From IMG/VR virus record IMGVR_UViG_2744054962_000004: DNA of 28,075 nt; one strand, written 5' to 3'. The position numbers were made by a program, and so were the translations under genes. The notes under the pieces were generated by a model. The model did no database searches, was not told where the DNA came from, and was given only the letters and a program-made list of their open reading frames with translations. The number at the start of each line of letters is the position of its first letter. Position 1 is the first letter of the stretch. Origin of the DNA: a virus. Lineage: Duplodnaviria; Heunggongvirae; Uroviricota; Caudoviricetes. Below, piece after piece: positions 2,037-19,058 of the stretch.

Positions 2037-2672
2037 ATGGCTGAGTATTATCCAGCGGTGTTTGAAGCAGAGGCTTTTAACTGTCCTCACTGTGGTGTTT
2101 ATGCCCGACAATTCTGGCGTAGGATGTATGGCTCTTCAAATGCGCTCCCTTCAAGAGGATCTGAGTTCCGAATGTCATCGTGCGCTCATTGTGATGAAGA
2201 CGCTTTTTGGTATCAGGGCAACATGTTGATCCCTGCGACTGGCAATGTTGAACTCCCAAATCCAGATATGCCCGATGACTGTAAGTCCGACTACATGGAA
2301 GCCAGAAGCATCATTAATCTGTCTCCTAAAGGGGCCGCTGCACTACTTCGTCTATGCCTTCAGAAGTTAATGGTCCACTTAGGCGAACCGGGGAATAACA
2401 TTAACGCTGACATCCGGTCACTCGTTCAGAAAGGACTACCTGTACGTATCCAGCAGGCAGCAGACATCTGCCGTATTGTCGGCAATCAGGCGGTCCATCC
2501 CGGAGAAATTAGCCTTGATGATGACCCGCAGTTGGCACATGGTCTCTTTAAGCTGCTGAACATTATTGTCACTGAGCAGATTACCAGACCCAAAGAGGTT
2601 GAAGAGATGTTCAATAGTATGCCTGAAAGGGCGTTGAAGGGTATTGAAAACAGAGATAAACCTAAAACTTAA
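2037..2672 (+). CDS. zinc-ribbon / DUF4145-like protein (candidate defence-associated cargo)
   Basis: 211-aa ORF with ATG start. N-terminal CPHCG...CAHC pair (CxxC-x-CxxC zinc ribbon). C-terminal region ...[37 protein letters not shown]... resembles the R-x-GN-x-aaH signature I associate with DUF4145. First gene inside the island. Confidence 0.55.
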
Positions 2673-2676
2673 AATG

Positions 2677-2692
2677 AGGGGCTTAAGCCCCT
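2677..2692. terminator. perfect 16-bp palindrome between convergent genes (bidirectional terminator candidate)
   Basis: AGGGGCTTAAGCCCCT lies in the 25-bp gap between the stop at 2670-2672 (plus-strand gene) and the stop at 2698-2700 (minus-strand gene); flanked by A/T-rich sequence. Confidence 0.5.
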
Positions 2693-2697
2693 TTAGC

Positions 2698-3486
2698 TTA
2701 TTCAGAAAACCAAATTTCTGGCCTTCTAAACTCCTTATTCTCAATAAAAAACAGAATATCTTTCCAGACTTCTTCATTTTCTTCCCAGAATTTTTGTTTT
2801 TCATTCATTGTAAGGACTTTACTATCATCTATTAACTTCTTGAGAATAGCAGGGATATCTTTATAGGGTTTTTTCCAGAAGGCATTACGAAATTCTTCAA
2901 TTTCAGCACTTGCATCCCGAACGGGTGTTAGAAGTTCAAGCTGTTTTTCTGTATCGGTAATAGGTTTATTTCCAACCCACTGATGATAGATTTGGCTAGC
3001 TTCTTCATGATGACCCCGAAGAATTGTTATTATTGTCTTTGAGAGTAACGAGCACATGTCAAAAGTAGTAAAGTAAAACCAATCGTGTTTGATTGCGGTT
3101 AATTCATCTTTCTTAACCCCTATTTGTTCAAGTTCACTCGAAATTGAAGATACTAATTTATAAAGATCTTTGTTTGATGTTGCTGTATCTAGGCGTCCGG
3201 TTCTGGAGGCTAATGAAATAGCTACTTCAGAAATAGGTAAGGAAACTTTTCTTAAACTCTCTAAAACTTTTTCAGCATCGTTAATAGTATCTCTTAATTT
3301 TGCCTCCATGCCTAAGAGCTTTATTTCATGCCATTCAAATTGAGTAAGCACCATCAACCCGAAGCCTGTTACAATGACAACAGTCCCTTCAGTTGCTCCT
3401 ATTGTCAGAGTTACAATTACACCAGCGCCTATAAGTAGCAATGCAATGAAAAACAAAAAATTCTTTATCCATTTATTTTTTAGCAT
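2698..3486 (-). CDS. membrane protein with two N-terminal TM helices and a ~200-aa soluble domain, function unknown
   Basis: 262-aa ORF with ATG start. Residues ~10-30 (FLFFIALLLIGAGVIVTLTI) and ~36-50 (VVIVTGFGLMVLTQF) are strongly hydrophobic. Markedly AT-rich compared with the proA-like core, suggesting foreign origin. Confidence 0.6.
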   Translation of the reverse strand: MLKNKWIKNFLFFIALLLIGAGVIVTLTIGATEGTVVIVTGFGLMVLTQFEWHEIKLLGMEAKLRDTINDAEKVLESLRKVSLPISEVAISLASRTGRLDTATSNKDLYKLVSSISSELEQIGVKKDELTAIKHDWFYFTTFDMCSLLSKTIITILRGHHEEASQIYHQWVGNKPITDTEKQLELLTPVRDASAEIEEFRNAFWKKPYKDIPAILKKLIDDSKVLTMNEKQKFWEENEEVWKDILFFIENKEFRRPEIWFSE

Positions 3487-3539
3487 ATCACTGTCACCAT
3501 TACGATTAAATTTGATCCAATATGAAGTAAAGTAAGTAA

Positions 3540-3749
3540 CTATTTTTCGTTCTCTGATGCCTCAAACGTCTTGGAGTGAGGGCAGGACTGTGAGCGCGTC
3601 ACCAGCGTGAACAGATAAATGTTGCTTTCGTAAGTGCAAAGCCGTTTTCCGCCCTGTAACTCTTGTTCGTCGGGGTTGCTCATGGTGATTTTTCCTGCAT
3701 GAGCCGCCAGCGGCAGCAGTGCCACAACAAATAGTAAAATTTTCTTCAT
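3540..3749 (-). CDS. small secreted protein (signal peptide MKKILLFVVALLPLAAHA), function unknown
   Basis: The track ORF 3540..3755 begins at GTG; the in-frame ATG at 3749 gives MKKILLF... with a classic signal peptide and an AHA-G cleavage context. Mature part ~50 aa with two Cys. Confidence 0.45.
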   Translation of the reverse strand: MKKILLFVVALLPLAAHAGKITMSNPDEQELQGGKRLCTYESNIYLFTLVTRSQSCPHSKTFEASENEK

Positions 3750-4729
3750 TTCCACAACCTGCCCTGTAGGTGTCCCGGCTCTTTATCCTCCAAGTTTACA
3801 TTCTCCTGTTGAAAATATCCCCGGCTCTGTTGGTGATCTGCTAGACCGTCAGCCCAGACCCTCGGTGAAAAGCGCTTTTCTTCGCCAAATATCGCTACGT
3901 GATGCCTTCAGCGACACGCCTCACTGCAACAAGCAGTGCAGTTACACAATGCTGCTTTGGGCTGAGGCAAGGGAGATAACTTGATGTTTTGAAGTGCCTC
4001 TGTTCACTAATTGTACAGTCATTTAACATATTGTATCTTGCATGTACTTGACTGGAATGGTCAGGTATTGCTTTTCGGAGCGTTGATGCGAAGCGGGGTA
4101 CACAACAGCGATTTCACCAACAGAAGGAAAGCATTCAGGAGGATTCGAGGTGAGTTCTCTTGTTCAAGGATTTTGGATGAGTTTGCCTGGTCATCAGACA
4201 ATTTCAGGTTTCAGGCCTTTGAAGCTGCCAGCGTGTCAAACCTGCTGAAAGTACAATTTCCTATTTGCCAGCAGAAAAAGAGCTACTACGGCGACGTTAC
4301 CACAACGGGTTGAAGGTCTGCCATCACCTGGTGATATTCACCGAGCCAGGCCGCCACTGTTTCGTACCATTTCCCACAACAATGTAAACAGCCACATCAA
4401 TAGCCCAGCATACGCTCTCAGCGCTGCTCTACGGCGTTATCTCCACACAATCGTGAACTGACAACGCCATGATCCACGACTTCCCATAGCGCGATAGAGG
4501 AGCCTCCAGAGGGGGGTGGTTTTGGTTTTTTGTATGATGTTTTATTTTTTATGGAAAAATGGTTCAGATAGGTGGTTGTGTTTAGCCTCATATCCACCAA
4601 CATATTTAACGCACCCAGCACTGGCGCGGCTTCGTTGTGTAGATCACGACATAACAATCACTACATCCCACAGGCGAGCCAGTGACAACAGACAGGATTT
4701 TCTATCAATTAACAGGTATTAAAGCTCTA

Positions 4730-5101
4730 TTATTTCCCGCCGAAAATCCAACCGATGATGGCACCGATTACCGCAGAGCGGGTCTCACCTGCTGCTCCTT
4801 TGAGAATGTTAATAACTGCATCGCCTGCACCAGGTGCCTGCTGTTGAAGTAAATTCAAACCACGAGGTGTTAACTTGGCGGCGGTGTCCATGTCGGTTGA
4901 AGAGATTATCTCCGTGTAACCCATATCGCTGAGAGCCTGGAGTGTGTTGCACAGCAGGTCAATCTGAGTTCTGTCTCCTCTGGGCTTCCAGCCGAAGTCT
5001 GAAAAATCGAAAGATGAGTAAGCCGGATAGTCCGCAAACAGTTTCACCAGGATTCCAGTTGCCATCTCGTTAAAGCTGTCTTTGCCTTGGACGAATTCCA
5101 T
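4730..5101 (-). CDS. hypothetical protein with a C-terminal glycine-zipper hydrophobic tail
   Basis: 123-aa ORF with ATG start and a good SD (aaggaaa). C-terminus ...GETRSAVIGAIIGWIFGGK is a GxxxG-type amphipathic/TM-like tail. Transcribed divergently from the control region at 5102..5851. Confidence 0.5.
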   Translation of the reverse strand: MEFVQGKDSFNEMATGILVKLFADYPAYSSFDFSDFGWKPRGDRTQIDLLCNTLQALSDMGYTEIISSTDMDTAAKLTPRGLNLLQQQAPGAGDAVINILKGAAGETRSAVIGAIIGWIFGGK

Positions 5102-5129
5102 AATGTTTCCTTTTGTTCACTGATTGAAC

Positions 5130-5300
5130 GAGGTTACTCAGTTACGGCAGGAAGTACCAGTCAGAAGTCATCGGTAACGAATACATATGAAAAGAAGTTT
5201 TCATCGGTAATGGTTACAGATGGGTCATCAGTAACGGTTACGCACCAATAAGATCAATATATTAAGATCAAATAAAAACCATTAAGATCTTTAAAACCTT
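5130..5300. repeat. iteron/operator-like direct repeats in the divergent control region of island 1
   Basis: TCATC(G/A)GTAA(C/T)GG occurs at ~5168, ~5201 and ~5225, with a related GGTTAC motif nearby. A(A/T)TAAGATC occurs at ~5247, ~5261 and ~5281. Confidence 0.5.
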
Positions 5301-5684
5301 AAGGTCAAAGGCAGGGTGAACTGGTGTTCACTAGTTGGTGTTAAGGAGTGATGCTTCTGTATCGCTCTGCTCTGAATGGCTCTGCCACTTCAGATATGTG
5401 TGGAAGACAAGCCGCGAGGCGCGTCAGTCAAATGTGGATCGAGCACGGCGCAGAGGAGCTTTAAACGCGACGTAACTCCCCCCTTGGAGGGGCGGCGGTC
5501 CCCCCTCAATCTCGCAAGGCGATAACGGCCCTCTGATTCTGTGGCGATGCCATGAGGCACAGCGGTCCTGTAACGCTCCCTGTCGCGTTCAGAGCGTCTT
5601 TCTCCTGTTGCTGGTATTTGTACCGCTTCGCTTAGGGCGTTGAATCTTAAGCGTCTGAGAGCGTTTTGTGATAAAGGGATTGAC

Positions 5685-5800
5685 AAAGAAAAGGTATATG
5701 TATAAAGTTGCGGGGTATTGACATAAAACACTTCCATTTCTTTATTCTTTAAGTGAGAAATCGGTTGACAAAGAAACTAATTTATAATAAACTATATATT
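5685..5800 (+). promoter_or_regulatory. promoter region for the 5852.. operon with duplicated TTGACAAAGAAA boxes
   Basis: TTGACA at 5690-5695 and 5765-5770, both followed by AAGAAA, plus a third TTGACA at ~5720; A/T-rich -10 candidates follow each. Exact -10 and start site not resolved. Confidence 0.4.
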
Positions 5801-5851
5801 ATCAACTGAGATGATTTTATGAATAAACAATAACTTAAATAGGAGAGATGC

Positions 5852-6280
5852 ATGGGGAAACCTGTTCTGTTCGATTTCTCGAACGCCACTGCCTCAGAGA
5901 TTGTCGCTGCAATCGATGCAAAAATTACCACAGCTCAAAATCTGCACGCCTTCCGCACTCGTATGGGCGGTGCCAAGAAGGCCGATAAGCTCTATCCAGC
6001 TACTCGCGAAGCACTGAACATCATTAAACGCCTGCGTCAGCAAGCGAAAGACGCAAAAATCATCCGGGATATTCTTAAACCATACTCAGCAGAGTTGGCA
6101 AAAGGCCGTGATGTTATGGAAATCATTGAACCAGTACTCTCTGCCTGGCGTGTCTATTACGCTTCTCATGGCATCGGCTTGATGAATGAACAGATCCTTC
6201 TGCTTAAGATGATTGAGTCTGGCGGTGAACTCGAAGGCATTACCGGAAAACCCATTCCAGAACTGACCACAACCGAATAA
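5852..6280 (+). CDS. hypothetical protein, first gene of the island 1 rightward operon
   Basis: 142-aa ORF with ATG start and SD AGGAGA 5 nt upstream; no recognisable motif. Confidence 0.55.
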   Translation: MGKPVLFDFSNATASEIVAAIDAKITTAQNLHAFRTRMGGAKKADKLYPATREALNIIKRLRQQAKDAKIIRDILKPYSAELAKGRDVMEIIEPVLSAWRVYYASHGIGLMNEQILLLKMIESGGELEGITGKPIPELTTTE

Positions 6281-6409
6281 CCATTCTCTGCTTTACACCG
6301 TTGGCAGCAACGCCACCAAACGAAATCGCCGCAAACACGGCTTCTTACTCCTGATCGCCATCCGCGATAGCAGGAGCGATAACTATTATGCATTCGGGGG
6401 GAACTTGAT

Positions 6410-6601
6410 ATGAATTTGAAGATTCAACAGCACGTATACGCCGGACTTTTAGAAGAAGCGAAGCGCCGGGGAACAACTGTTCCAAACCTTGCACGCGAAG
6501 TGCTAGAAATCGCCGCCCATCTTTTTGATAACGGTGAACCTTTACCCGCCTTGGGGAATATTAATGGAGATAATAATGAACAAAAGAGCGTCGCAAAATA
6601 A
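6410..6601 (+). CDS. small hypothetical protein (63 aa), possibly DNA-binding
   Basis: ATG start, weak SD. Its 3' end overlaps the start of the next gene. Function not recognisable. Confidence 0.4.
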   Translation: MNLKIQQHVYAGLLEEAKRRGTTVPNLAREVLEIAAHLFDNGEPLPALGNINGDNNEQKSVAK

Positions 6602-7376
6602 ACCAGAACTATGGATTGAAGAAGATCGCCGCCTTTTCTATGCAGATGCAATCACAATTAAGTCCACTGGTGAATGTTTCAAAGTCGAGGATAAACTTGC
6701 AAAGATCCATACCTATATGGTGGATCAATACAACAGCTACCAGGCTGATGGTAAGAGTTTCTACGAAGATCAGCGCGATATCGCGACTAAATGTAAATGC
6801 ACACCAAAAACTCTTGGCAAGTGGCTGAAAGTTCTTCAAGCACTTGGTCTACTTATCATTGATGAGAGCCAGAAGAGCCACTCTTACACGGTGCGGTCAG
6901 TAGTCAGCCAGGAACACAACTTGATTTTCAGCTATCCGAAATTGTTGAACGGCAAGCCGTCATACGACCATGAAGAGACGCTTAAACGCCTTTATGCATC
7001 TCAGGGACGTAGGAACGTAAAAAATCATCAGCCAAAAACCGAAGAGAGCGGTAAGAGTGAGCAGAAACGTGATGTGGAATCTTTCATGGTGGGATCTGCC
7101 GCGCCTGCTGCTGGAAAACCAGACGGCATACCTGCTGTGGATATTCCTGTCGATGTTGATTTATCCGGTAGTGATGATCCATCACTGAGTGATTCAAATG
7201 GGAGAAATGTCGTTGAGTTCCCGCGAAATTGTAGACCCAAACCCAGTTTTAAATTTGTAGCCCCAGATGATGACGACCACGAGGAAATCCATCAGGAGCA
7301 GGAAACCTTTATTGAGCCAGATGTTTGCCACGAACCAACGCCGGAAGAAATTGACGCTGCGGTAGCTCTTATGTGA
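6576..7376 (+). CDS. putative replication initiator / winged-helix DNA-binding protein with acidic C-terminal tail
   Basis: The track ORF begins at TTG 6525; the in-frame ATG at 6576 has SD GGAGA 5 nt upstream. Segment ...FYEDQRDIATKCKCTPKTLGKWLKVLQALGLLIIDESQKSHSYTV... is a helix-turn-helix plus wing pattern. C-terminus is strongly acidic (DDDDHEEIHQEQE...). Island 2 has a protein of the same architecture at 19503..20072. Confidence 0.55.
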   Translation: MNKRASQNKPELWIEEDRRLFYADAITIKSTGECFKVEDKLAKIHTYMVDQYNSYQADGKSFYEDQRDIATKCKCTPKTLGKWLKVLQALGLLIIDESQKSHSYTVRSVVSQEHNLIFSYPKLLNGKPSYDHEETLKRLYASQGRRNVKNHQPKTEESGKSEQKRDVESFMVGSAAPAAGKPDGIPAVDIPVDVDLSGSDDPSLSDSNGRNVVEFPRNCRPKPSFKFVAPDDDDHEEIHQEQETFIEPDVCHEPTPEEIDAAVALM

Positions 7377-7388
7377 TGGAGGAATGAA

Positions 7389-7865
7389 TTGTGTGAACAC
7401 GTAAGCGGTGTACTGACCGCAGATGAAGAACAAAAGCTATCTCGCCTTTTCTCCGTCTTGGAGAATCCGACATATAAATCCCGGTCCAAACCATCCGACT
7501 TGGAAACACAACGTAAAGCCCGTTTGCTATTGAATCGTGGGTTTTCACTGCAAATTGTCGCAAATACACTAGATCTTCCGTTTGCTGAAGTCTGGCGGCT
7601 CGCACGTCAAAAACAAGCGGTGACCTGGGCGATGATGACACCGACAGCCCGGACAGAATTTGTCCGTGAAATGTGGTCACATCGGATGCACCCGGAACAG
7701 ATCCGCAAGCGTTGCGATGGTCTGTCATACGTAAGCCTTCGATATTACCTGCATAACGCCGGGATCACTGACGCTGAAATGTTGGGTTACTACCCAGACG
7801 TGTTCGCGAATATCTGCAAGTTGCCGACAGTGAAGAAGAAGCGCACTAAGCGTAAATCCAAATAA
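7389..7865 (+). CDS. hypothetical protein with basic C-terminal tail (possible DNA-binding / small-terminase-like)
   Basis: 158-aa ORF starting at TTG 7389 with strong SD GGAGGA 5 nt upstream (no in-frame ATG near the 5' end). C-terminus KKKRTKRKSK. Confidence 0.45.
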   Translation: MCEHVSGVLTADEEQKLSRLFSVLENPTYKSRSKPSDLETQRKARLLLNRGFSLQIVANTLDLPFAEVWRLARQKQAVTWAMMTPTARTEFVREMWSHRMHPEQIRKRCDGLSYVSLRYYLHNAGITDAEMLGYYPDVFANICKLPTVKKKRTKRKSK

Positions 7866-8030
7866 TCCCACATCGGGAGCCAATGAACTTTGAAGCAATC
7901 TTTTCTTACCTGCCCGTTGTCTGGCTGGCGTATCGCTGCGTCTATGATGGGCTGATCCTCTTGCTGCGAAGCAGTGACGTTGCCCGTCATCGCCTTGCGA
8001 CAAATATCCTACTTTGGAGACTCCATAAAA

Positions 8031-8363
8031 ATGAAAAACGTAAACGACATCCGCGCCGATATTCTCGCCGCAATGCAGGCCGCTGCCGAACCGGAGAGCG
8101 GAGATCTGAATAAAAGCGCCGAGCAGGTGTTGGCTGATGCCATCGAGGGATATCTGACCGCTTCGACTGCAACAGCCAGCAAATCAGCCCCGAAAGCAAA
8201 GACCATAAAGGAAAAAGGGATCGCTCTGTGCCACCAGGCCCAAGGTTATAGCGCTAATCTGCGTCCGGTAAGTCTCATGATGAAGGCAAGTCTTGATGAG
8301 CTAACACCTGAACAACGCGCCGCGCTTGAGCGTCTGGGTTACGATATCAATCAGGGGGTGTGA
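8031..8363 (+). CDS. hypothetical protein (110 aa)
   Basis: In-frame ATG at 8031 inside the GTG-initiated track ORF 7974..8363. Stop TGA 8361-8363 overlaps the start of the next gene (TGATG), suggesting translational coupling. Confidence 0.45.
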   Translation: MKNVNDIRADILAAMQAAAEPESGDLNKSAEQVLADAIEGYLTASTATASKSAPKAKTIKEKGIALCHQAQGYSANLRPVSLMMKASLDELTPEQRAALERLGYDINQGV

Positions 8364-10510
8364 TGTCTGGTAATATTATAGTTAGCACCCTAACAAACCG
8401 AGTGGTCTGGGATGTCGATCAGACAAGTTACGGCAAAGCCTTAAAGGCTGTTAAATCCATCAAAGCTGCTCACGAGAAGCCCGCTAAAGCGCTGGAGAAG
8501 GCCCAGAAGAGGACCGCTCAGATGGAAGGCAAGGCTTCACTAGCATCGGCTAAGGCTCAGACAGCGAAGCTCCGCCAGGCTGAACAATTGTCAAAACAGC
8601 AACAGAAACAAGCTCAGATACAAGCCAAAATGGAGCGGGACGCAATCGCCCACGCCAATAAAATGACCTCATTACAGGCTCGCCAGTTATCTCAGCAGGA
8701 GCAGGCAGCACGGCAGAATGCCCGTTTAGCAGCGATTTCTGCAAAAGTGCAGGCCGCAGCCAGATCACGAGCGATGACCTACAACCCAAACATGGGCGGT
8801 CAACATTACGATCCTGGTCTTGTTTCCCGCCAGACTGACGCAATGAACCGTGGTCACGGCGCTGTTGCTGCCGACATTGCAGCCACTAAAAGGGCTATGG
8901 CCTTAGAAGAAAAGCGCCAGCGTGAGAAAGAGGCCAGTCTTAAACGCCAGAGCACTGCATACGATACTCTGCGCCGTGCCAGTTTAACTATCAGTCATAT
9001 CGAAGGCGCTAGCCTGGCTGACAAGATGAAAGCTGTGCAGGCAATCAAAGAGGCTACCAAGGGATACTCCGAGCAGCGTTACACCATCGCAGAAATGCGC
9101 CATGAACTTGCTAAAGCGACTCTGGAAACCAGGCGGCAGGCACGTATTAACCGCCAGATTGTTAAAGATAAAGCGAAAGCCAAGCGAGCAGGGCGCATCA
9201 ATGCTCAACGTCTGACCAGTGAACGTAGCGAACGTGGTTATGGTGGCCTCGCTGCTACTGGTGTAATTGCAGGTGGTTCCCTGATTGGCTCAATGGGGGT
9301 TGCTCGTGTTGGTCAGACACTACAGGGCAGTGTTGAACGCAACCAACAGATGAAGGCTTTACAGTCTCAAGGCATCTCACGTCTTGAATATGAAGCTGTG
9401 CGCGATGTTGTCGCCAACAAAACCGGCTTTAATATTTCTCCAGACAAAGCCCTTGATTTTTCTGCTGACTATAACGACAAAGTGGGCCAGTTGACGGCTA
9501 ACGGAACATGGAAGACCAACAAAAACGGTCAATCAACGTTGTCCGGTGGTGGTGAACTTGGTGACCTTATCAACGCTATTGCAGGCAAATCCAACGTTGC
9601 CACGGCAAAGCGCGTTGTTAAAGAACTCCAGGGTATCGACTTTAATCTCTTCCTTGTGTACCTCAAGCAATTGCAGAAGACTTTTAAGTTCACGGATAAA
9701 GAAACAGCCGCTTTTGCAGAAGCGATCAACGACGCAAGCAAGATCCTTCCGGCATTTGCTGATGGTGGTGAAGCTGTTCAGAAACGTATGGATGACCTCG
9801 CCCGGAATGGTTACGCCCTGAGCGAAGCACAACAGGAACAGCTAAACCGCCTAAGCGCTCTCTCTGTTGAATATTCAAGGATCAACGATTCGTTGAGTGA
9901 TATTTTCAGCTCAGGTTTTGCTGATGGGTTGGGAGAGGTTGGCAAGAACACTTCCAGCTTTAGCAAAGGTATGGCTGGCCTCGTTCCTATTATGGATAGT
10001 TTGGGGAAGGCTGTAGGCCAGGTGACTGCTGATATGTTGTTATTTGCCGGACGGGTGGGCCAACGTGTTAACGAGGGTGCAACACTTCCGGATGCAGTCT
10101 ACAACACCGTTGTGGATGATTCCGCAAACGGTGCTGCCGATTGGATTAAGGAAAAGACCGGCTTTGATCCACGTAGCATCGGTCAGACGCTTAAGCAGAT
10201 TTACCCGTGGCTAGATAGTTCAGCACCAAGCAATATCGGCTCAGGCACAGCGTATAACGATCCAGCGCTAGCGTTGAATGTTCCAGGTCTAAACTATCAA
10301 ACACCCCAGCAACCAACGTTTACGGTTCCGACAATTGATAGCATAGTTCAGCGACAGCCGATTCCTGTTGCGGTCACTGGCGAAGCTGAGATTAAACTCT
10401 CACCGCTTGATATTAACGTGAATGACGGCGCTATTAACGGTTTGATTGATACAAAACTGAGGAGCTATGAGCAGGCACAGAACAACATGATCCTTGGTAT
10501 TGCTCAATGA
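8363..10510 (+). CDS. large coiled-coil protein with Gly-rich hydrophobic segment (tape-measure-like or scaffold-like phage structural protein)
   Basis: 715 aa from ATG 8363, SD AGGGGG. N-terminal ~300 aa are K/A/Q/R-rich heptad-like sequence. Central GGLAATGVIAGGSLIGSMGV hydrophobic Gly-zipper. N-terminus and architecture parallel the 613-aa protein of island 2 (24151..25992). No Walker A motif. Confidence 0.6.
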   Translation: MSGNIIVSTLTNRVVWDVDQTSYGKALKAVKSIKAAHEKPAKALEKAQKRTAQMEGKASLASAKAQTAKLRQAEQLSKQQQKQAQIQAKMERDAIAHANKMTSLQARQLSQQEQAARQNARLAAISAKVQAAARSRAMTYNPNMGGQHYDPGLVSRQTDAMNRGHGAVAADIAATKRAMALEEKRQREKEASLKRQSTAYDTLRRASLTISHIEGASLADKMKAVQAIKEATKGYSEQRYTIAEMRHELAKATLETRRQARINRQIVKDKAKAKRAGRINAQRLTSERSERGYGGLAATGVIAGGSLIGSMGVARVGQTLQGSVERNQQMKALQSQGISRLEYEAVRDVVANKTGFNISPDKALDFSADYNDKVGQLTANGTWKTNKNGQSTLSGGGELGDLINAIAGKSNVATAKRVVKELQGIDFNLFLVYLKQLQKTFKFTDKETAAFAEAINDASKILPAFADGGEAVQKRMDDLARNGYALSEAQQEQLNRLSALSVEYSRINDSLSDIFSSGFADGLGEVGKNTSSFSKGMAGLVPIMDSLGKAVGQVTADMLLFAGRVGQRVNEGATLPDAVYNTVVDDSANGAADWIKEKTGFDPRSIGQTLKQIYPWLDSSAPSNIGSGTAYNDPALALNVPGLNYQTPQQPTFTVPTIDSIVQRQPIPVAVTGEAEIKLSPLDINVNDGAINGLIDTKLRSYEQAQNNMILGIAQ

Positions 10511-10940
10511 TGAAACAGAGGGTGGCGAATTCGTCGCCCCTATCTCAACACCGCAATGCGTATGTATCAAATTTAGCGACAAATCAAATACTTTTCGTGA
10601 AATTTATTGTAAATAATAATCATTCGTGTTAAAATAATATACAAGGTGAATTACAACAGCCAAATGTCATTCCCTTCTATAAAGCAGGCTCTGTGACACC
10701 GTGGAGCCTCTTTTGTGATGTGTCGCTTCCAGCCTCTCACTGGACGTTTGCCAACGGGCGGTACATCACAAAAGATTCGCCCTAGGGCGTACAAAGTCTG
10801 GGCCTCTGGTCTGGATTTGCCATTAAATCCGGCTCTCCTCCGGTCATCAGCCATGATGCAAACTGGCTCAGGTGTTCAGCGTTTGAGGCTCCTTACCTCT
10901 TGGATGGCGCTGATCACCTTCTCATTCCTACCAGTGAAAT

Positions 10941-10975
10941 TGACTCCGGACGACTCTCCGTCGGGTCACTTTTTT
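10941..10975 (+). terminator. candidate Rho-independent terminator inside the 570-bp intergenic gap
   Basis: tgactccggacgac / cgtcgggtca imperfect stem followed by cTTTTTT (10969-10975). Confidence 0.4.
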
Positions 10976-11078
10976 CATCGGAACAATTCGAAAGGCTGGC
11001 CCTGTTGCCGTTTACGGCTCAAGCAGGCGCTGGCCTTTTGTTTACATAGCTATGTGAAATTTAACGGGAGTTAATAAT

Positions 11079-11420
11079 ATGAAAATGGGAACAACTGAAC
11101 GTTCTTACAATGACGCGATCGCGTATGCAATCGATCCGAATTTTGACCGCAAGACTATTACCGTCGATCTGGCTGTAGAAGTCCAGCCGGGTAGTTGCAT
11201 TACCAGCGCTGGGGCTGCTTATGTCTCTGGTGATGACTGCCTGCTGGTTCTGAGCCACCACAGGGCCGAAGATGCTGCTCATATCATCGTTGCTGATCGC
11301 GGGATTTACATCAAACAAGACACCATCGTCGCTGTTATGGGCGCTACCGCTGGCGCTAATGCTATTGCCGCACTCACCAAAACGGGCGCAATCCGTACCA
11401 GCGCACCGGACGCAGAATAA
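11079..11420 (+). CDS. small phage-structural-like protein (head-decoration-like or tail-terminator-like)
   Basis: 113-aa ORF with ATG start, Ala/Gly-rich, directly upstream of the 344-aa protein. The same small/large pair recurs in island 2 (22334..22717 then 22732..23763). Assignment rests on size and order only. Confidence 0.45.
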   Translation: MKMGTTERSYNDAIAYAIDPNFDRKTITVDLAVEVQPGSCITSAGAAYVSGDDCLLVLSHHRAEDAAHIIVADRGIYIKQDTIVAVMGATAGANAIAALTKTGAIRTSAPDAE

Positions 11421-11438
11421 TAATAAGGAGAAGACAAC

Positions 11439-12473
11439 ATGGGACTATCAACCAATTTCAGCTACGCGGATTACACCAATACCTTTGTTAACATGGATGC
11501 AAAGAACACTTTGCTGTCCACGCTTAATGTTTTCAATGATCGACAGACTTCGGCTAGTCCAAAGGTCAGCCTTGATATCATTGATGAAGTAGCCCAGAAG
11601 GTGGCAAGCTCTGTTAATCGTTACGGCTCTGAGTGGTCCAGCATTCCTAAGCGTAGCTCTAGCAATCACCTTATCGAAGCTCCGCTTTATGCTTATCAGG
11701 ACCGTATTACAGCGGCAGACGTGCAACCATACCGCAAACCAGGTTCCGACCTGCAAATGTCTGTAATGGATGCGGTCACTTCTTCTGCTGTCGCAATGCA
11801 CGATAAGTACATGCGTACCCGTGAGCGGATTTTTGCTGATGCGCTTTTTCGTAATACCGTCGAAGCGACCTACACCCAGCAGCCAATCATTTCCTGGGAA
11901 GATGAATTTGGATACCAACAGGCAACCGGGACAATCAAAACCAGCGTTAGCTCTGGTGACCCACTTCGCAGCCTCGATGATGCAGTAACCGCTGCTAAAG
12001 TGCGCATGGGGGGCCTGGCTGGTCAGCTTGATGGATTTATCCTGTTTGCAGGTAGCAATGTTTATCGCGGCATTAAGTATCACCCTGATGTTCGTCAGAA
12101 TGTTCAGTTCGGTGTGCTTGATCGGGATGTTCTGTTTAATAAAGAAGTGCTTCCGGCATTCTCAACATTCATCATTGAAAATGTTCGAGTGGTGGAGGTC
12201 ACGGATCAGGCACTATACGGAATTGGTCCGGATGAATCCTTCCTGGTTCCACGCTTTAGCAAACCGCTGTCTTCGGATATTGCTCTGCCCTTCGGTTATG
12301 TGGCAACGGCTACCAGCCGCAATCTTGATCTGGCATTTGCTGATCCGGTTGATTTCCGTATCTGGAGCGTACAAGACAAGTTTAAGAACGTTGAGCTATT
12401 CGCGGAAAGCTCTATCTTGCCTGTTGTGTACCGCCCGGATTTCACTACACGACTGACGAACGACGCAGCGTAA
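11439..12473 (+). CDS. phage-structural-like protein, ~344 aa (major-capsid-E-like or major-tail-like)
   Basis: ATG start with SD AAGGAG 8 nt upstream. N-terminal region is similar to the island 2 343-aa protein (STNFSY...NTLLSTLNVFND vs STYFGV...NTLITNLDLFDV). Size and pairing with the upstream small gene mirror the lambda D/E arrangement, but fold not verified. Confidence 0.5.
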   Translation: MGLSTNFSYADYTNTFVNMDAKNTLLSTLNVFNDRQTSASPKVSLDIIDEVAQKVASSVNRYGSEWSSIPKRSSSNHLIEAPLYAYQDRITAADVQPYRKPGSDLQMSVMDAVTSSAVAMHDKYMRTRERIFADALFRNTVEATYTQQPIISWEDEFGYQQATGTIKTSVSSGDPLRSLDDAVTAAKVRMGGLAGQLDGFILFAGSNVYRGIKYHPDVRQNVQFGVLDRDVLFNKEVLPAFSTFIIENVRVVEVTDQALYGIGPDESFLVPRFSKPLSSDIALPFGYVATATSRNLDLAFADPVDFRIWSVQDKFKNVELFAESSILPVVYRPDFTTRLTNDAA

Positions 12474-12554
12474 GACAGCGGATTTTGGGGCTGACTATTT
12501 GGCCCCACCGTGAAGAATTGCCTGAAAAGGCGAGGCAAAGAAGAGGTGATTAGT

Positions 12555-12758
12555 ATGAAAATTCAATTTCAGACGAATAACGGTTTCCCGTTGCTGACTG
12601 TTGCAGACGAGCGCGTTTTAGATTTTCTGAACGTTAGCGCCGTGTGTCGGTTCCTGAAGGTTCCGCGCTCCTCGTTCATGATGAACGTTGAGCAATACGG
12701 GCTTGAAAAGGCAATCAGTGAAGCCCTGCTGAAGTTAAGAAAGAATAAAAATTGTTAA
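12555..12758 (+). CDS. small hypothetical protein (67 aa)
   Basis: In-frame ATG at 12555 with SD AAGAGG 8 nt upstream, inside the GTG-initiated track ORF 12510..12758. Confidence 0.4.
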   Translation: MKIQFQTNNGFPLLTVADERVLDFLNVSAVCRFLKVPRSSFMMNVEQYGLEKAISEALLKLRKNKNC

Positions 12759-12917
12759 TATTCAATATGTTGTTGTTTGTTGTCAAAAGAATCATTGTGT
12801 TTGTTTTTCGCGCATTTACTTGACACCCTGATGTAGATTGCGTAACCTTCACATAAAACTATTGCCTGCGATGTGTTCAGGTATTGTCGGAAACCCATCT
12901 TTAACCGAGGAGGTAAA

Positions 12918-13076
12918 ATGGCTATCACAAGTAGTATGTTTGGTCGCACCATCCTGACTGGTAAGGATGCTGAACAAATGCTCAAGCAGATGAGCAACGC
13001 TAAGCCTAACGATAAGGCTAAGCGTTCTTTAGAAAATGCTCGTCAGCTCCGCCAAAAAATGGCAAAAAAAGCATAA
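12918..13076 (+). CDS. small protein (52 aa), possible ribbon-helix-helix regulator or antitoxin partner of the downstream GNAT gene
   Basis: ATG at 12918 with excellent SD GAGGAGG 4-5 nt upstream. Predicted short strand then helices (RTILTGKDAEQMLKQM...). Lies 30 bp upstream of the GNAT-like gene. Confidence 0.5.
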   Translation: MAITSSMFGRTILTGKDAEQMLKQMSNAKPNDKAKRSLENARQLRQKMAKKA

Positions 13077-13106
13077 TAAAAACTAAGGGCAGGTTGTTAA
13101 ACGAAA

Positions 13107-13685
13107 ATGGATGATGTGTTACAACCTGACCTTCAGATTCTTCCCCTAAATCATTTCCATAACCACAAACGTTTCAGCAGTGGTTCAGAAGAATTCCAAC
13201 CTCTTAAATCTTTTCTTCAGAAAGATGCTTTATTATTTCAAGATGGTTGTATAGCTCAAACTTATGTTGTTGTTGATGACAACATGCGGAAGGATAAAGA
13301 AGAGCCTCTCGAAACATTCCCTCATAAAGTATTAGGTTATATAACGCTGACTTGCAGCCAAGTTAACCTTAAAGAATATGACTTAGGGGACTGTGTTCGT
13401 GCAAATACGTATGAGTACTTACCTGCCGTCAAGATTGCCCGTTTAGCTGTGGATGCAAAGTGTCGGACTGGCGGGATCGGTTCAATGCTGTTCGAATACG
13501 CCTTATTAATGTCATTGGATGATATTCGCCCTATGGTTGGGTGCAGGTTCTTGATAACCGATGCTAAGAGAAGTGCCATGGATTTTTATTATAAAAAAGG
13601 GATGGAGCTTCTTGATACGCAAGAAAATCAAGAGGCTGACCACCCCATAATGTTCATCGATCTTTTCACATTACTTGAAAACTGA
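13107..13685 (+). CDS. GNAT-family acetyltransferase, candidate GNAT-type toxin (TacT/AtaT-like)
   Basis: 192-aa ORF. ...LPAVKIARLAVDAKCRTGGIGSMLFEYAL... matches the GNAT acetyl-CoA-binding motif A (R-x-x-G-x-G after a beta strand). Preceded by a small ORF in toxin-antitoxin-like order. 3' end overlaps the integrase 3' end by 20 bp (convergent). Confidence 0.6.
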   Translation: MDDVLQPDLQILPLNHFHNHKRFSSGSEEFQPLKSFLQKDALLFQDGCIAQTYVVVDDNMRKDKEEPLETFPHKVLGYITLTCSQVNLKEYDLGDCVRANTYEYLPAVKIARLAVDAKCRTGGIGSMLFEYALLMSLDDIRPMVGCRFLITDAKRSAMDFYYKKGMELLDTQENQEADHPIMFIDLFTLLEN

Positions 13686-14871
13686 TCATCTCCACATACC
13701 CCGATAGCTCCCTCATCCCCGCGCCAGCGCTGTACGTTCTGAAACTCTCCGTTTTGCCTCGCTCATGGCCCACGATTAGGGCGATCCTGTCTTCTGGTAC
13801 ACCATGCCGATCAAGCTGGCTGATAAACATTCCTCGCAGACTATGAAACACCTTCCGCTCCGTGCCTTTCTCACCCAACGCTTTACGTTTAGCCCGTGTA
13901 AATCGCTGTGTATGCCACGTTGAGCGCTTGCCGTCTGCACGTTCGGTGATGCTGGCATGGTAGAACAGAAAGCCGTTGTGGTTGTTCTGGATGAGGTTTT
14001 TAATCAGTTTCGTCAATCGGCTATGAATTGGAACCAGGCGAGCCGCATTGCGTGTCTTACCCTCCGTCACATCGAAACACCATACCCCCTCAACGGTTTT
14101 GATATTGCTGATTTGCAGAGAGCAGATTTCGTTAAGGCGCATACCGCTATACATTCCCACTATCGCAACGGCTTTCATCTCTTCATCAAGCATCGCATAC
14201 ACCTTAGCCAGTTCGTCACCGCTAAAGGGTTCGTAGCTTTCTCGATCATGGCGCACGTCCAGTTTGTGGCCCGTGAATACATTGGCTTTCGGTGCGTCGT
14301 GATAGCGGTTTTGGGCTTGTGCCACTAGTTGGGACAGACAGCCAAGATAATTCGCCAGTGTCTGGCTGGCTTTCTCCTGCTTGGCGCTGTCTAACCAATC
14401 GGTGACCATAGTCCTGTTGATTTCCTGCAACTGGAAATCCTTACGCCGGAAATGAGCCGTGAAGACCTCCACCGCCTTAATGTACTTGCTCAGGGTAGAC
14501 AGCTTGCGCCTGTCACTGTGTTGGACAATAAATTCATCCCGCAGTTGAACAAGGGAGGGACACACACGAGCCGTGGCGAAGTCTATCCCATTATTTTGGC
14601 TTACATGCTGGTTGATAGAGCGCAGTTCCACCAGGACGCGATCGACACTGTTACGTTGGGGTTTTGGCTTGAGTCGGTCTCTGATAGCAAAAAATTCGTG
14701 CATGACTTTGTCACGAATGATTCGGGCTTCCCTGATATCTGCCGTGCCAGTTGTACGCATGAATGCTGTTCGATTCCCAAAAAGGGAACGCATATAAGGC
14801 GGAATAGTGACCTTGACGGAGTACACCGAAGAGTTTTCTTTAACAAGGTACGCATTAGGCTTGTATTTCAT
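13666..14871 (-). CDS. tyrosine recombinase / phage integrase (island 1)
   Basis: 401-aa ORF with ATG start. Box I region ...GMRLNEI..., then ...KVFHSLR..., ...GHERGKTESFRTY... consistent with the R...HxxR...Y catalytic signature. Sits next to the att repeat and shares a 49-aa identical block with the island 2 integrase. Confidence 0.9.
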   Translation of the reverse strand: MKYKPNAYLVKENSSVYSVKVTIPPYMRSLFGNRTAFMRTTGTADIREARIIRDKVMHEFFAIRDRLKPKPQRNSVDRVLVELRSINQHVSQNNGIDFATARVCPSLVQLRDEFIVQHSDRRKLSTLSKYIKAVEVFTAHFRRKDFQLQEINRTMVTDWLDSAKQEKASQTLANYLGCLSQLVAQAQNRYHDAPKANVFTGHKLDVRHDRESYEPFSGDELAKVYAMLDEEMKAVAIVGMYSGMRLNEICSLQISNIKTVEGVWCFDVTEGKTRNAARLVPIHSRLTKLIKNLIQNNHNGFLFYHASITERADGKRSTWHTQRFTRAKRKALGEKGTERKVFHSLRGMFISQLDRHGVPEDRIALIVGHERGKTESFRTYSAGAGMRELSGYVEMISFQVM

Positions 14872-14986
14872 CTTTCCCCCGATCTAATATTCAGGGGCAA
14901 CTGTGATCAGTTGTGTCAGTTTTGCCTTTCAGGAGCAGCGCATACGGTTCGAAGAATCAATGACTTGTGAAACACGTCATTGGAAT

Positions 14987-15022
14987 CGAAGGTCGTAGGT
15001 TCGACTCCTATTATCGGCACCA
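14987..15022 (+). repeat. junction att core: displaced 3' fragment of tRNA-Thr (with CCA) between island 1 and island 2
   Basis: cgaaggtcgtaggttcgactcctattatcggcacCA: identical to tRNA positions 41-74, followed by an intact CCA end; no 5' half present, so not a functional tRNA. Confidence 0.85.
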
Positions 15023-16400: not shown

Positions 16401-16952
16401 ATGCGCAGGTCTGCATTTGTGAGGATGATGATTTTTACAACGTTGTTTGTAGGGGGAACTTCTACCGCAGTTGCTAAAAACTGCAAAAAAGGAATACCTT
16501 GTGGTAACTCGTGTATAGCTGTTGGTAAGACGTGCCGGATTGGCTCTTATGCCCCTTCATCTTATAAAAATCATTCATACTCTTATCCTTCATCCTCTAT
16601 TCGAAGCTCGCAATCAAATAATTCACGAAAAACTGAAGGAGTGAAAACGACTCCTGCTGCCAAAAATTATCTTTGCCAATACTCTATTGCATCAATCGAA
16701 AACGGACGTTTAGGGGCATTACGTGTTCAGGGATACGCACAAGTAACTTTATATGCAGATAGCTTCAAGGCTAACAGATTAAATGGAACATATTTGATAT
16801 CGCCAAAACTGAATGCTAACGGCAAGTTTATGATGGCAGATGATAAAAGCAAGGTTTATGCTTATGATTCTTGGCTATTAAATTTTGCAATAAGCGATCG
16901 TATCACAAGAACGACAGAACAATGGGATCGATGTAAGCTCAATCAAAAATAA
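16401..16952 (+). CDS. secreted Cys-rich protein (signal peptide), function unknown
   Basis: 183-aa ORF with ATG start and SD GGGAGG. N-terminal signal peptide (MRRSAFVRMMIFTTLFVGGTSTAVA) followed by CKKGIPCGNSCIAVGKTC cysteine cluster and a Ser/Tyr-rich linker. AT-rich. Confidence 0.55.
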   Translation: MRRSAFVRMMIFTTLFVGGTSTAVAKNCKKGIPCGNSCIAVGKTCRIGSYAPSSYKNHSYSYPSSSIRSSQSNNSRKTEGVKTTPAAKNYLCQYSIASIENGRLGALRVQGYAQVTLYADSFKANRLNGTYLISPKLNANGKFMMADDKSKVYAYDSWLLNFAISDRITRTTEQWDRCKLNQK

Positions 16953-18080
16953 CAGTTAGAGAAGCTCTTGTAGAGGCATTATTGAGTTATTGGTTTTAAT
17001 ATTTTTGTGCCTCTATGGGCTTTTTTTGCCTTTTTGCAATGTAGAAGAGAGCACAGGAATCGTTAAAATTAATTATTGGGGTATTTAAGGTTATTTTCAG
17101 GTGATTTAAGGGTATTAAACGTAATTTAAGTGATTAAAATATAAACAGGTTGTTCTGTATCTTATTGATTTATAAGGTTGTTTTCAAATAAAGGTAAATA
17201 AAAAATAAATAGCCATAAATAGCTATAAATACATCTAAATACATATGAATCCCCTCCCTTATGGCTAGATTGCGAGAGGTGCTTAACGCGATTTTCAGCG
17301 CCCCCCGATCTGGAAAATCCAGAATCCCCAAATATCAGCAAGGAATTTTCTTGCGTAATCAACATCGTTTTTACCTATTAAATCATTACACAGAAAGCCT
17401 TTCTGTAATGTCTCTCACTAAACTTTCACTAAACACGAGAATGATCGGTTTTATGTCGGATCAGATGCTAGAAACAGCACCACGTCTCACAAGGGCTGTA
17501 AGCGATGAAACCAGTGTTTATGCGGGTGCAGGTCAAAATATAGGCCAAAATACATTTAACATAATAATCGTAATATGCACTAAGGAACACATAGAACGCC
17601 TTGAGTTGATGTATCAGGGGAAAAATGGTGTATTTTTTACGTAGGAGCACGAGAGGGCTTCTATTGACTTTTGTATGCTATGAAATATAATAGAAGATTT
17701 TTTATTTTTATGTTGATAGTGATTGCACATTAAAGATTGAAAGCAAATTTAAACATAAATTTTCAACACGTGAAAGAACTTGTTCAACAAATGATAGAAC
17801 GTTTATTGAGCAACAATTTTGCAGTGATGCGCTATATGCCGCATAACATAAGGCTTTGCTGATGATGACGCAAAAGTGAAGAAAGTAAGAATTGCATTTT
17901 GAAGCCATTTTTCTTGGATTTTTTAGTATGGAATTACACAGGGATTAATCATCAATTAATCTTGAATTTAAGCTTGTTTTAGATGTTTAATTTTTGATAG
18001 CAAGAAAGACTTTTACTGATTATAAGAAGATCATTGCACAGATGTTATGTGATGGATGTAACGGTAGGTCACTGTGAGCT

Positions 18081-18217
18081 ACCCCCACAGAATTCTGTTA
18101 TCCTTAACTTTTAAAGAAATATGCACCCTAACAGAAAACTGTTACCCCAACCCTAACAGAATTATGTTAGACACCCCCACAGAAAACTGTTAGCCACCCC
18201 TACAGAATTTTGTTACC
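18081..18217. repeat. five iteron-like direct repeats (~22-23 bp), candidate replication origin or operator array
   Basis: acccccacagaattctgttatcc (18081), accctaacagaaaactgttacccc (18125), ccctaacagaattatgttag (18151), acccccacagaaaactgttagcc (18172), acccctacagaattttgttacc (18195). Consensus CCCYMACAGAAWWNTGTTA with internal dyad ACAGAA..TCTGT; four copies are tandem at ~23-bp spacing. Confidence 0.7.
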
Positions 18218-18908
18218 TATTAGATCAACTATCAAACTACAATTAAATTATCTTTTATAAATTCTTTTATCTTTAAAGAATAATTATAGGGATACCCGTT
18301 AGGGAGTCTTCGACTATCCCTTAATCTATTGGCATTCGCCAGAACCTTGCACAAGTTAGAGTGTTAGTCAGTTAGACTGATACTTCTCATAACACATAGT
18401 TTTTGTTTGTTAATGTTAGTTAGTAGATCTATGTTCGCTTTCCGCTCACAACGAATATGTAATCTACTATGTGCAAATAGCCTACGGCTTGCGTAAGGCT
18501 AAATAGTCTTGCGCTGTGCGCAGAACGATAATTAACTAACTACCATCTAACGATCATCAATCATCTAAAATAAATTTCTTGTGCAATGTTCTTGCGAATG
18601 CAATTAGGGTAGCGTTACCCCTTTGGGGATGCTAACGCATAACTATAGATCAACCATCAAACAGACAAAAAAGAAAAATATGGTTTAAAGATGTTAGGTA
18701 GTAGATGAGTTTCTACCGCTTAAATCAAACCGTAGGCGAGCTAAACAGCCATTACATAAGGGAATGTATTGTTTTTATCAAAACCTCGTTAGAACGCGTT
18801 TTAGAGCGTTTTAGACAATAATGAAGAATTGGAGTATTCGTAAGAGCACGAATTGCTAAGAAAAATCATAACACACTGAAAATGATCAATATTTTTATGG
18901 CTGGGGGG

Positions 18909-18937: not shown

Positions 18938-19058
18938 AATATTAGGGGCAGGAAAACATTCTTATCCTTTAAATAATTAAACCAATGCATCGCACTTTGA
19001 AGCCCAAGGCTTGCAAGGTGTCTATTTCTTTTAACTAAATAGAATAGGAGGTTAATTA

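Follow-up and report, generated by a model that had tools for sequence, protein, structure and literature searches.

The stretch of DNA considered here (IMG/VR virus record IMGVR_UViG_2744054962_000004; 28,075 nucleotides, hereafter the window) starts with the Escherichia coli proA gene and the tRNA gene thrW, matches several complete E. coli chromosomes with 100% identity, and carries two integrated islands in tandem: island 1 at 1443-15020 (~13.6 kb) and island 2 from 15021, which continues beyond the window end up to yagU (~13.3 kb). Their gene content and the sequences they share with phages suggest that both islands are quite probably integrative satellites of virulent myoviruses related to rV5 and phi92. 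Each encodes a head decoration protein (Dec), a major capsid protein (MCP) and a tape measure protein, to which island 2 adds a Dit-like baseplate protein, and the identities of the genes overall are close to certain. In a narrower model, to which we give a slight preference, such a satellite would build its own capsid and decoration shell on the portal of its helper phage, have its DNA packaged by the helper terminase acting on a copied terminal-repeat boundary, and contribute its tape measure protein (and, in island 2, Dit) to a chimeric tail. Satellites of this kind were already described bioinformatically in 2023; what is new here is limited to island 1 and the related lineage in which no tape measure gene occurs, the position of the islands in tandem at thrW, and two candidate hijacking determinants, a 41-nt element and a mimic of a phage scaffold protein.

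Head and tail genes of the two islands

An initial annotation of the window, made from the sequence alone, had pointed in both islands to a small protein immediately followed by one of ~343 amino acids (aa), together with a large protein of coiled-coil architecture, and had read the set either as a lambda-like head decoration protein and capsid protein E or as a siphovirus tail module. All of the open reading frames (ORFs) that it listed are present as described, with the coordinates and sizes given below, and the profile and fold comparisons that it had proposed as checks returned PF03864, the HK97 fold, PHROG tape measure families and Dit_like. The 32 annotated or called ORFs were searched against Pfam and PHROGs; an NCBIfam search returned nothing.

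The small protein and the ~343-aa protein are a gpD-like decoration protein and an HK97-fold capsid protein of the Phage_cap_E family, in line with the first of the two readings. The island 1 MCP (11439-12473, plus strand, 344 aa) matches phrog_29 and PF03864, the latter at 8e-15 and 55.1 bits (gathering threshold 22.9) over positions 6-328 of 329, and is colinear with the capsid proteins of phages J-01 and naswa at 21-22% identity. The island 2 MCP (22732-23763, plus strand, 343 aa) has no direct Pfam match and only a weak PHROG match; PF03864 is present in homologues that are 42-49% identical to it, and its AlphaFold2 model (predicted local distance difference test score 75), compared with the PDB by Foldseek, matched the capsid proteins of PhiTE (1e-15), ICP1 (2e-14), Bas63, Sf14 and lambda (gpE, 1e-9), with 270 matches at E <= 1e-3. 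The capsid proteins of the two islands are homologous to each other (24% identity over 328 aa, E 2e-15), and the HK97 fold and membership of Phage_cap_E were both found for these proteins. A tail terminator and tube, the alternative identities for the pair, are ruled out by Pfam, fold and gene order.

The decoration proteins are less well marked. For the island 1 protein (11079-11420, plus strand, 113 aa) there is no sequence-family match, and Foldseek agrees weakly with a decoration identity; the island 2 protein (22334-22717, plus strand, 127 aa), encoded directly upstream of the capsid gene, has a weak match to phrog_2680, ‘head decoration’ (0.07), and a short match to J-01 Dec. The two are probably homologous to each other, as suggested by hhalign (probability 64%, E 6.6e-5), and the gpD-like fold and the location directly upstream of the capsid gene are those of gpD/SHP-like proteins. 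A PDB sequence search with the Dec profile returned nothing. A match to PF26210 (Phage_phiTE_211), precomputed for the homologue in the Winslowiella relative L011, was not reproduced when Pfam was rerun.

The large proteins are tape measure proteins. That of island 1 (8363-10510, plus strand, 715 aa) matches PHROG tape measure families at 4e-15, 9e-14 and 6e-5 and aligns over 262 aa, at 32% identity, with its counterpart in Klebsiella phage FBKp34 (E 6e-35), with the N-termini aligned too. That of island 2 (24151-25992, plus strand, 613 aa) matches phrog_16051, a tape measure family (3e-33), and is 28% identical over 492 aa to the tape measure protein of phage J-01 (E 1e-27), rising to 45% in the first 33 aa. 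The phage counterparts sit after the tail chaperones and before the baseplate genes, the position expected of a tape measure gene. Both island proteins have a charged N-terminal third rich in Ala, Gln, Lys and Glu, and a Gly/Ala-rich hydrophobic segment at residues 296-316 (island 1) or 179-199 (island 2). The architecture that the initial annotation took to be common to the two is thus borne out, but BLASTP detects no similarity between them, and the phage tape measure proteins that they resemble come from different lineages. In some genomes RefSeq annotation (Prokaryotic Genome Annotation Pipeline, PGAP) gives the island 2 protein the misleading names ‘flotillin family protein’ or ‘coiled-coil domain-containing protein.’

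Downstream of the island 2 tape measure gene, the 225-aa protein (26040-26717, plus strand) matches Pfam Dit_like (PF21821) at 2e-27, with a score of 96 bits against a threshold of 24.2. It is 49% identical (E 3e-63) to the product of the J-01 gene located directly after the tape measure gene, which is itself Dit_like (6e-29), and an ‘endolysin’ PHROG label on the protein coincides with its Dit_like domain. Neither ORFs nor tblastn revealed a Dit gene or remnant in island 1, including the 570-bp gap at 10510-11079, so the 225-aa gene of the earlier description holds for island 2 and not for island 1. Of the tail module once proposed, the tape measure and Dit-like proteins have stood, and the terminator, tube and chaperone have not.

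The absence of packaging and lysis genes, also noted initially, was confirmed: terminase, portal, prohead protease, holin and endolysin families have no match in the 32 ORFs. No head-tail adaptor or connector, alpA or Pri-Rep gene is found in any ORF of either island; neither island encodes a full scaffold, sheath or tube; and no TcaP-like or recognisable tail-chaperone gene was found in them.

Links to virulent myoviruses

When the island proteins were compared by tblastn with 50,697 phage records, the tape measure proteins matched only virulent 135-150-kb myoviruses: Phapecoctavirus and Justusliebigvirus in the case of island 2, and Klebsiella Stephanstirmvirinae, Cronobacter and Salmonella phages and Vequintavirus in the case of island 1. 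The island 2 capsid protein matched nothing in the same records, and that of island 1 gave two weak matches only. The gene order is shared with these phages. Phapecoctavirus J-01 encodes Dec (130 aa) followed by MCP (333 aa) and, further on, a chaperone, a 75-aa gene, the tape measure protein (659 aa) and a 238-aa Dit_like protein, and the layout of FBKp34 is the same; the island and phage capsid proteins are colinear at 21-25% identity. What the islands encode is therefore a selection of the virion genes of a single phage group, in diverged but full-length form. The 140-150-kb virulent myoviruses of this group are known as strictly lytic.

The replication genes provide a second link. The island 2 replication initiator (Rep; 19503-20072, plus strand) has an N-terminal domain in common with a phage nuclease: 99% identity (98.9% in DNA) links residues 1-105 of Rep with the N-terminus of a protein of 328 aa from phage Mt1B1_P17, which contains two HTH_36 domains and a GIY-YIG-type MUG113 domain. 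Barth et al. read this Rep-domain protein of Mt1B1_P17 as an anti-satellite, origin-directed nuclease (PMC10055350). Some RefSeq (PGAP) annotations call the island 2 Rep a ‘LexA family transcriptional regulator.’ A repeat search (Tandem Repeats Finder, period 23) revealed ~5 copies of a 23-nt iteron at 18073-18218 (plus strand), with the consensus ACCC(C/T)NACAGAAnnCTGTTA, within a 2.1-kb AT-rich stretch without ORFs (16952-19059). These iterons are the probable origin of island 2 and presumably the target of the Mt1B1_P17 nuclease. The island 1 initiator (6576-7376, plus strand) is a winged-helix protein of the DUF6945 family (Pfam 2.6e-13) that also matches PHROG replication-initiator families. 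It is conserved in two island-1-type relatives (L011 and L029), and the sole match found for a phage nuclease counterpart is weak and comes from a Vibrio phage (E 1e-3).

A third link is an element of island 2 at 17270-17309 (plus strand) that resembles the boundary of a phage terminal repeat. Over 46 nt it is 95.7% identical to ~45 Phapecoctavirus/Justusliebigvirus genomes, and its counterpart in phi92 (318-363) straddles position 343, the annotated end of the 343-bp left direct terminal repeat (DTR). A 41-nt core, comprising the searched 40-mer (17270-17309) and one base at its 5′ end, is identical in island-2-type satellites and phages; similarity reaches ~17335, the flanks are unrelated, and no such identity is expected by chance. 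The element is a candidate packaging signal, that is, a terminase recognition or cleavage site. Directly upstream of it in island 2 lie 10-nt phased ATAAATA(G/C)C repeats (17205-17244) and, further upstream, 11-nt TTTAAGGTGAT repeats (17084-17111). Both sets occur in satellites and are absent from the phage copies of the region; they are possibly protein-binding or DNA-bending sites.

In island 1, the ORF at 8031-8363 (plus strand, 110 aa) appears to mimic the N-terminus of a helper scaffold protein. It matches phrog_2970 (3e-17) at profile positions 13-66 of 354, and its residues 53-95 (8187-8315) are 70% identical to residues 2-41 of gp34 of Vequintavirus naswa, the gene for which sits between a protease-position gene and Dec. 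The motif site is found in 55 phage records at 73-78% DNA identity to island 1, and the phages sharing the copied ~40-residue N-terminus are Vequintavirinae, Hena1 and PVP-SE1-like phages; in DNA comparisons of island 1 with phages, this motif and the att core are the only matches. The ORF is kept in the Winslowiella relative L011 (42% identity) and is conserved in island-1-type relatives without a tape measure gene. The similarity suggests a small adaptor that would dock where the N-terminus of the helper scaffold docks. A place in the Dec/MCP pair or in a tail chaperone set does not fit: it is instead a conserved island gene with a scaffold-N-terminus-like motif, and a chaperone is rejected on the grounds of this motif and of the retention of the gene in relatives lacking a tape measure gene. 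Neither the scaffold mimic nor the terminal-repeat boundary element is mentioned in the paper of Barth et al.

Since the homologues, the gene order, the domain shared by Rep and nuclease, and the terminal-repeat element all lead to the same group of phages, the helpers are probably virulent rV5/phi92-like myoviruses (Phapecoctavirus, Stephanstirmvirinae and Vequintavirinae) and not a lambdoid prophage. The helper of island 2 is probably a Phapecoctavirus or Justusliebigvirus, and that of island 1 probably a relative in the Vequintavirinae or Stephanstirmvirinae. The lambda-like helper or resident prophages assumed in the initial annotation are probably wrong; a lambdoid or temperate helper was rejected because the capsid tblastn was nearly null and the tape measure and Dit proteins match only large virulent myoviruses.

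Satellite model, known systems and rival explanations

The following sequence of events may be envisaged. Infection by a helper would cause the island to excise and replicate, and its capsid and decoration proteins would form on the helper portal a shell for ~13 kb of DNA, probably small and T=4-like. In island 1, assembly of this shell would be aided by the 110-aa protein copying the N-terminal ~40 residues of the helper scaffold. The helper terminase would package the island DNA, in island 2 by way of the 41-nt copy of the terminal-repeat boundary. The island tape measure protein (and Dit in island 2) would displace that of the helper in an otherwise helper-built contractile tail, giving a chimeric virion of the sort shown in experiments for the Vibrio cholerae satellite PLE. 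Less helper would be produced as a by-product, and the island would thereby double as a defence. Satellite status receives indirect support from the own replicon, the att sites, the cognate phage nuclease, the terminal-repeat copy and the identical copies across strains. The overall proposal of the initial annotation, that an island supplies its own virion parts and parasitises a helper, is thus upheld, with head and tail genes now identified.

Several considerations weigh against this model. Excision, replication, packaging and small capsids are all inferred from sequence. The capsid protein is just 17-25% identical to that of the helper, which is hard to square with the use of the helper portal, scaffold and protease. 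The island tape measure proteins differ modestly in length from those of the phages (613 versus 659 aa for island 2; 715 versus 647 aa for island 1). Tape measure proteins set tail length at ~0.15 nm per residue, which predicts a tail ~7 nm shorter than that of the phage for island 2 and ~10 nm longer for island 1, so that altered tail length does not stand out as their function. A regulatory role is an alternative for the 41-nt element, and a search of island 2 for the second boundary, the left-end junction of phi92, gave no match, leaving one of the two boundaries mimicked. Island 1 has no identifiable cognate phage nuclease, packaging-site-like match or close helper in the 50,697 phage records, and the phage subgroup indicated by its tape measure protein is not the one indicated by its scaffold mimic. 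Finally, the matches in IMG/VR come from contigs of 14-150 kb, mostly with IMG isolate-genome-style identifiers, and offer no evidence of ~13-kb particle DNA.

The closest known elements are the 224 putative ~13-kb satellites that Barth, Dunham and Seed (2023) found beside tRNAs in E. coli (PMC10055350 section 24; published as PMC10448857). Their genes specify Dec, MCP, a tape measure protein, one component of the baseplate and an integrase, whereas terminase, protease, portal, alpA and Pri-Rep are missing from them; a further criterion was a Rep N-domain homologous to the T5orf172/GIY-YIG nuclease of Inny, Muut or Mt1B1_P17 (PMC10055350). The authors themselves call the E. coli satellites ‘putative’ (PMC10055350). 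Both islands have Dec, MCP and tape measure genes without terminase, protease, portal, alpA or Pri-Rep, and both are ~13 kb long with att repeats beside a tRNA and a tyrosine integrase at one end. Island 2 matches in size, tRNA site, gene set, absences and Rep N-domain (99% to Mt1B1_P17), and CP019051, CP027126 and CP029242, which hold 100%-identical copies of it, are listed in Table S6 of that study at 13,290-13,293 bp; by its sequence, island 2 is one of these satellites. Island 1 has the same att site, an integrase 46% identical to that of island 2 and likewise Dec, MCP and tape measure genes, but differs in having a DUF6945 Rep, no baseplate gene and a tape measure gene upstream of Dec and MCP. 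Its DNA similarity to island 2 at the BLASTn level is limited to ~250 nt of the integrase gene, compared with the >=10 kb used as a BLASTn criterion by Barth et al. As for Table S6, the island 1 locus in CP029747 differs from the entry for strain 2016C-3878, and two further genomes carrying island 1, AP017617 and CP054556, are not in the table. On this sequence comparison, island 1 is best described as a divergent lineage or member of the same satellite kind. A literature search for follow-up on the E. coli satellites returned the paper of Barth et al. only.

PLE, examined later by the laboratory of Barth et al., offers the nearest experimental parallel. Its tape measure and baseplate-hub proteins replace those of the helper ICP1 in PLE virions, deletion of the tape measure gene lowers transduction by 96-99.9%, and the PLE proteins are 19-41% identical to their ICP1 counterparts, a range into which the island-phage identities fall (PMC11838301). 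As proposed for the islands, PLE is an integrative satellite of a strictly lytic myovirus, and like them it has a tape measure gene of its own, to which some variants add one for a baseplate hub; as may be the case for island 2, an origin-directed nuclease of the phage attacks the RepA_N replicon of PLE (PMC10055350), and the capsid protein of ICP1 is the second-best fold match to that of island 2. Unlike the islands, PLE has no capsid or decoration gene, taking the ICP1 coat and shrinking it via the external scaffold TcaP, and its host and helper are different and its sequence dissimilar. The capsid-forming phage-inducible chromosomal islands (cfPICIs) resemble the islands in having their own HK97-fold capsid protein, with a capsid size set by satellite genes; they differ in having the complete head and packaging complement (small terminase, portal, protease, adaptor and connector) together with alpA and Pri-Rep, and in exploiting temperate helpers, and the tail genes are an addition of the islands. 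The scaffold mimic recalls the capsid-size redirection proteins Sid of P4 and CpmB of the Staphylococcus aureus pathogenicity island SaPI1. CpmB is small and redirects assembly by reproducing the capsid-binding end of the 80alpha scaffold, 80alpha being the helper. The ORF at 8031-8363 is like CpmB in that it copies a ~40-residue terminal motif of the helper scaffold-position protein; it is unlike CpmB in copying the N-terminus and not the C-terminus, in having no sequence relation to it, and in belonging to an island with its own capsid protein.

Among other explanations, the one that deserves most attention is that the islands are decoys serving defence alone, in which dominant-negative effects of the diverged capsid, tape measure and Dit subunits would poison the assembly of phage heads and tails and the island is never packaged or transduced. 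Interference with tail assembly is known from the Tai systems (PMC11364771) and from Rta of PLE11 (PMC11838301), island 1 holds a PD-T7-4 defence gene, and full-length, highly diverged homologues are what poison subunits might look like. A passive defence island, however, needs no replicon, and both islands have their own Rep, with iterons in island 2; a phage nuclease carrying the origin-binding domain of the island implies that island replication matters in infection; the copy of the terminal-repeat boundary would have no role; and near-identical copies in unrelated strains imply efficient horizontal transfer. Interference is in any case compatible with transduction and might be a side effect of a satellite cycle. 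We therefore regard the decoy explanation as unlikely. Decay of a temperate prophage is far less likely still, even though thrW is a classical prophage site, the 34-nt att core is that of the P22 family and an integrase pseudogene fragment lies just past island 2. Every ORF is intact and full-length, the size is constant at ~13 kb with own att sites, the nearest phage homologues belong to virulent 140-150-kb myoviruses, and the same non-contiguous gene subset recurs in two lineages (24% capsid identity) and at least seven genera. Indeed, because islands with capsid proteins only 24% identical keep the same subset and relatives keep its order, the retention of these genes argues for selection and not decay.

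The own capsid and decoration genes could also signify a cfPICI or a miniature autonomous phage making complete heads by itself and stealing only tails, but we consider this as improbable as prophage decay: the cfPICI gene set is found in neither island, with terminases, portal, protease, adaptor/connector, alpA and Pri-Rep in no ORF, and Barth et al. name the same absences and do not count tape measure and Dit among the signature genes of cfPICIs (PMC10055350). The lowest probability attaches to a portal-less, encapsulin-like nanocompartment of HK97 fold with a cellular role. It would account for the lack of a portal gene, and encapsulins are among the lower-ranked fold matches (E ~1e-7); the best of these matches, to myovirus capsid proteins, are however eight orders of magnitude better, the genes have tape measure and Dit genes as neighbours, within an integrative replicon involved in an arms race with phages, and no cargo-type enzyme adjoins them.

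If the satellite model holds, a wider proposal can be made, though only tentatively and with rather less than even confidence. Island 1 would represent a second, Enterobacterales-wide ‘shell-swapping’ lineage with a core of Rep (DUF6945), scaffold mimic, Dec and MCP, which elements in Klebsiella, Raoultella, Kosakonia and Winslowiella have with no tail gene beside it and to which the E. coli form adds the tape measure protein; together with island 2, it would define satellites that swap the shell and the tail ruler of the helper and are packaged via a 41-nt copy of a DTR-type boundary. No description of a DTR-type packaging adaptation of satellites (as opposed to cos or pac), or of the island 1 lineage, was found in the searchable literature. 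Phapecoctavirus, Justusliebigvirus and Vequintavirus phages are candidates for phage therapy and biocontrol of E. coli. Should the islands hijack such phages and lower their yield, they would influence phage host range in a hidden way and also provide a route of gene transfer; defence cargo such as PD-T7-4 is among their genes. In mechanism they would extend to E. coli the chimeric satellite/helper tails reported for PLE in 2025 and the satellite-built capsids reported for cfPICIs in 2023. The 41-nt copy, the scaffold mimic and the natural comparison of relatives with and without a tape measure gene provide experimental handles.

Integration sites, relatives and neighbouring genes

The tRNA-Thr(CGU) gene thrW (1369-1442, plus strand; ARAGORN and Rfam) is the only match in an Rfam scan of the window. 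Its 3′-terminal 34 nt (1409-1442), the attL of island 1, are repeated exactly at 14987-15020 (plus strand), a shared copy that forms attR of island 1 and attL of island 2, and this 34-nt core is identical to the attP of the P22 family. Both islands end in a tyrosine integrase gene on the minus strand, at 13666-14871 in island 1 (Pfam Phage_integrase, 7.5e-19) and at 26798-28075 in island 2 (6e-17), the two proteins being 46% identical. The ORF of the latter is complete, with its start codon at the last bases of the window; RefSeq gives identical coordinates, with yagU next. Because other E. coli strains carry either island singly at thrW, the two are independent elements that here stand in tandem. 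Just past the window end, the interval from island 2 to yagU contains a frameshifted piece of an integrase gene (L002, 21295-21406), which also follows island 1 in a genome with that island only (L001, 29281-29392) and was left by an element that occupied thrW earlier. The isolates with copies of 100% identity are of human, dog, pig, chicken, cattle and surface-water origin. DNA matching island 2 is present in 763 of 5,426 complete E. coli genomes, a count that takes in genomes matching by the integrase alone, and 136 hold most of the island.

The Dec family of island 1 extends to Enterobacter, Buttiauxella, Kosakonia, Raoultella, Klebsiella, Winslowiella and Ewingella. Island-1-type elements in K. 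michiganensis, Winslowiella, Raoultella and Kosakonia carry Rep, the scaffold-mimic gene, Dec, MCP, a small ORF and an integrase, and the tape measure gene is absent from them in all four of these other genera examined; this absence indicates that the gene, located upstream of Dec and MCP in island 1, is an acquisition of the E. coli form. The modular shuffling proposed at the outset is accordingly supported, the tape measure gene being an add-on in this lineage. Island-2-type elements in K. pneumoniae (L026), Cronobacter turicensis (L027) and E. coli (L028) keep the order small ORF, Dec, MCP, small ORF, tape measure, (Dit), integrase, with Dit missing in that of K. pneumoniae. On the left of the E. 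coli element L028 is a gene for a serine resolvase, which recalls the subset with serine recombinases that Barth et al. noted.

The small ORFs flanking the head genes have no family match. In island 1, the ORF after the capsid gene (12555-12758, plus strand, 67 aa) has the same place in L009 and in the Winslowiella relative. In all three of the island-2-type relatives L026, L027 and L028, a gene of 64-77 aa has the position that the ORF before Dec (22132-22329, plus strand, 65 aa) has in island 2, and one of 62-66 aa has that of the ORF after the capsid gene (23919-24116, plus strand, 65 aa). The latter ORF had been a candidate tail chaperone, an identity rejected because it follows the capsid gene in all island-2-type relatives examined and matches no family. 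It has a weak link (1e-3) to the post-capsid protein of L009; BLASTP gives no alignment between it and the ORF at 12555-12758, although a helix-turn-helix-like ‘SA(L/V)CR(L/F)L’ stretch is similar by eye.

Each island also carries cargo genes. At the tRNA-proximal end of island 1, the ORF at 2037-2672 (plus strand) encodes the PD-T7-4 anti-phage defence protein (PADLOC PDLC04109, 6e-102, full length; Pfam DUF4145, 1e-13), adjoined by minus-strand ORFs at 2698-3486, 3540-3749 and 4730-5101. At 12918-13685, a 52-aa ORF precedes a gene for a GNAT acetyltransferase (192 aa; phrog_1758, 2e-23), the 3′ end of which overlaps the convergent integrase gene by 20 nt; the two may be a toxin-antitoxin-like or accessory cargo pair. 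The island 2 cargo gene at 16401-16952 encodes 183 aa; the N-terminal segment of the protein resembles a signal peptide, and its C-terminal domain matches phrog_2578 and phrog_14768 (1e-17). A promoter and terminator scan of the window stayed at background level. Upstream of the structural genes of island 2, the best sigma-70-like promoter (TTTGCA-18-TATAAT) shares bases with a palindrome at 21146-21192, AAATGATAATGAAAATCATTTGCAT, which is AT-rich, resembles a Fur box and is weakly like two sites in the phi92 terminal repeat (72-93 and 266-290; BLAST E 0.09-0.3).

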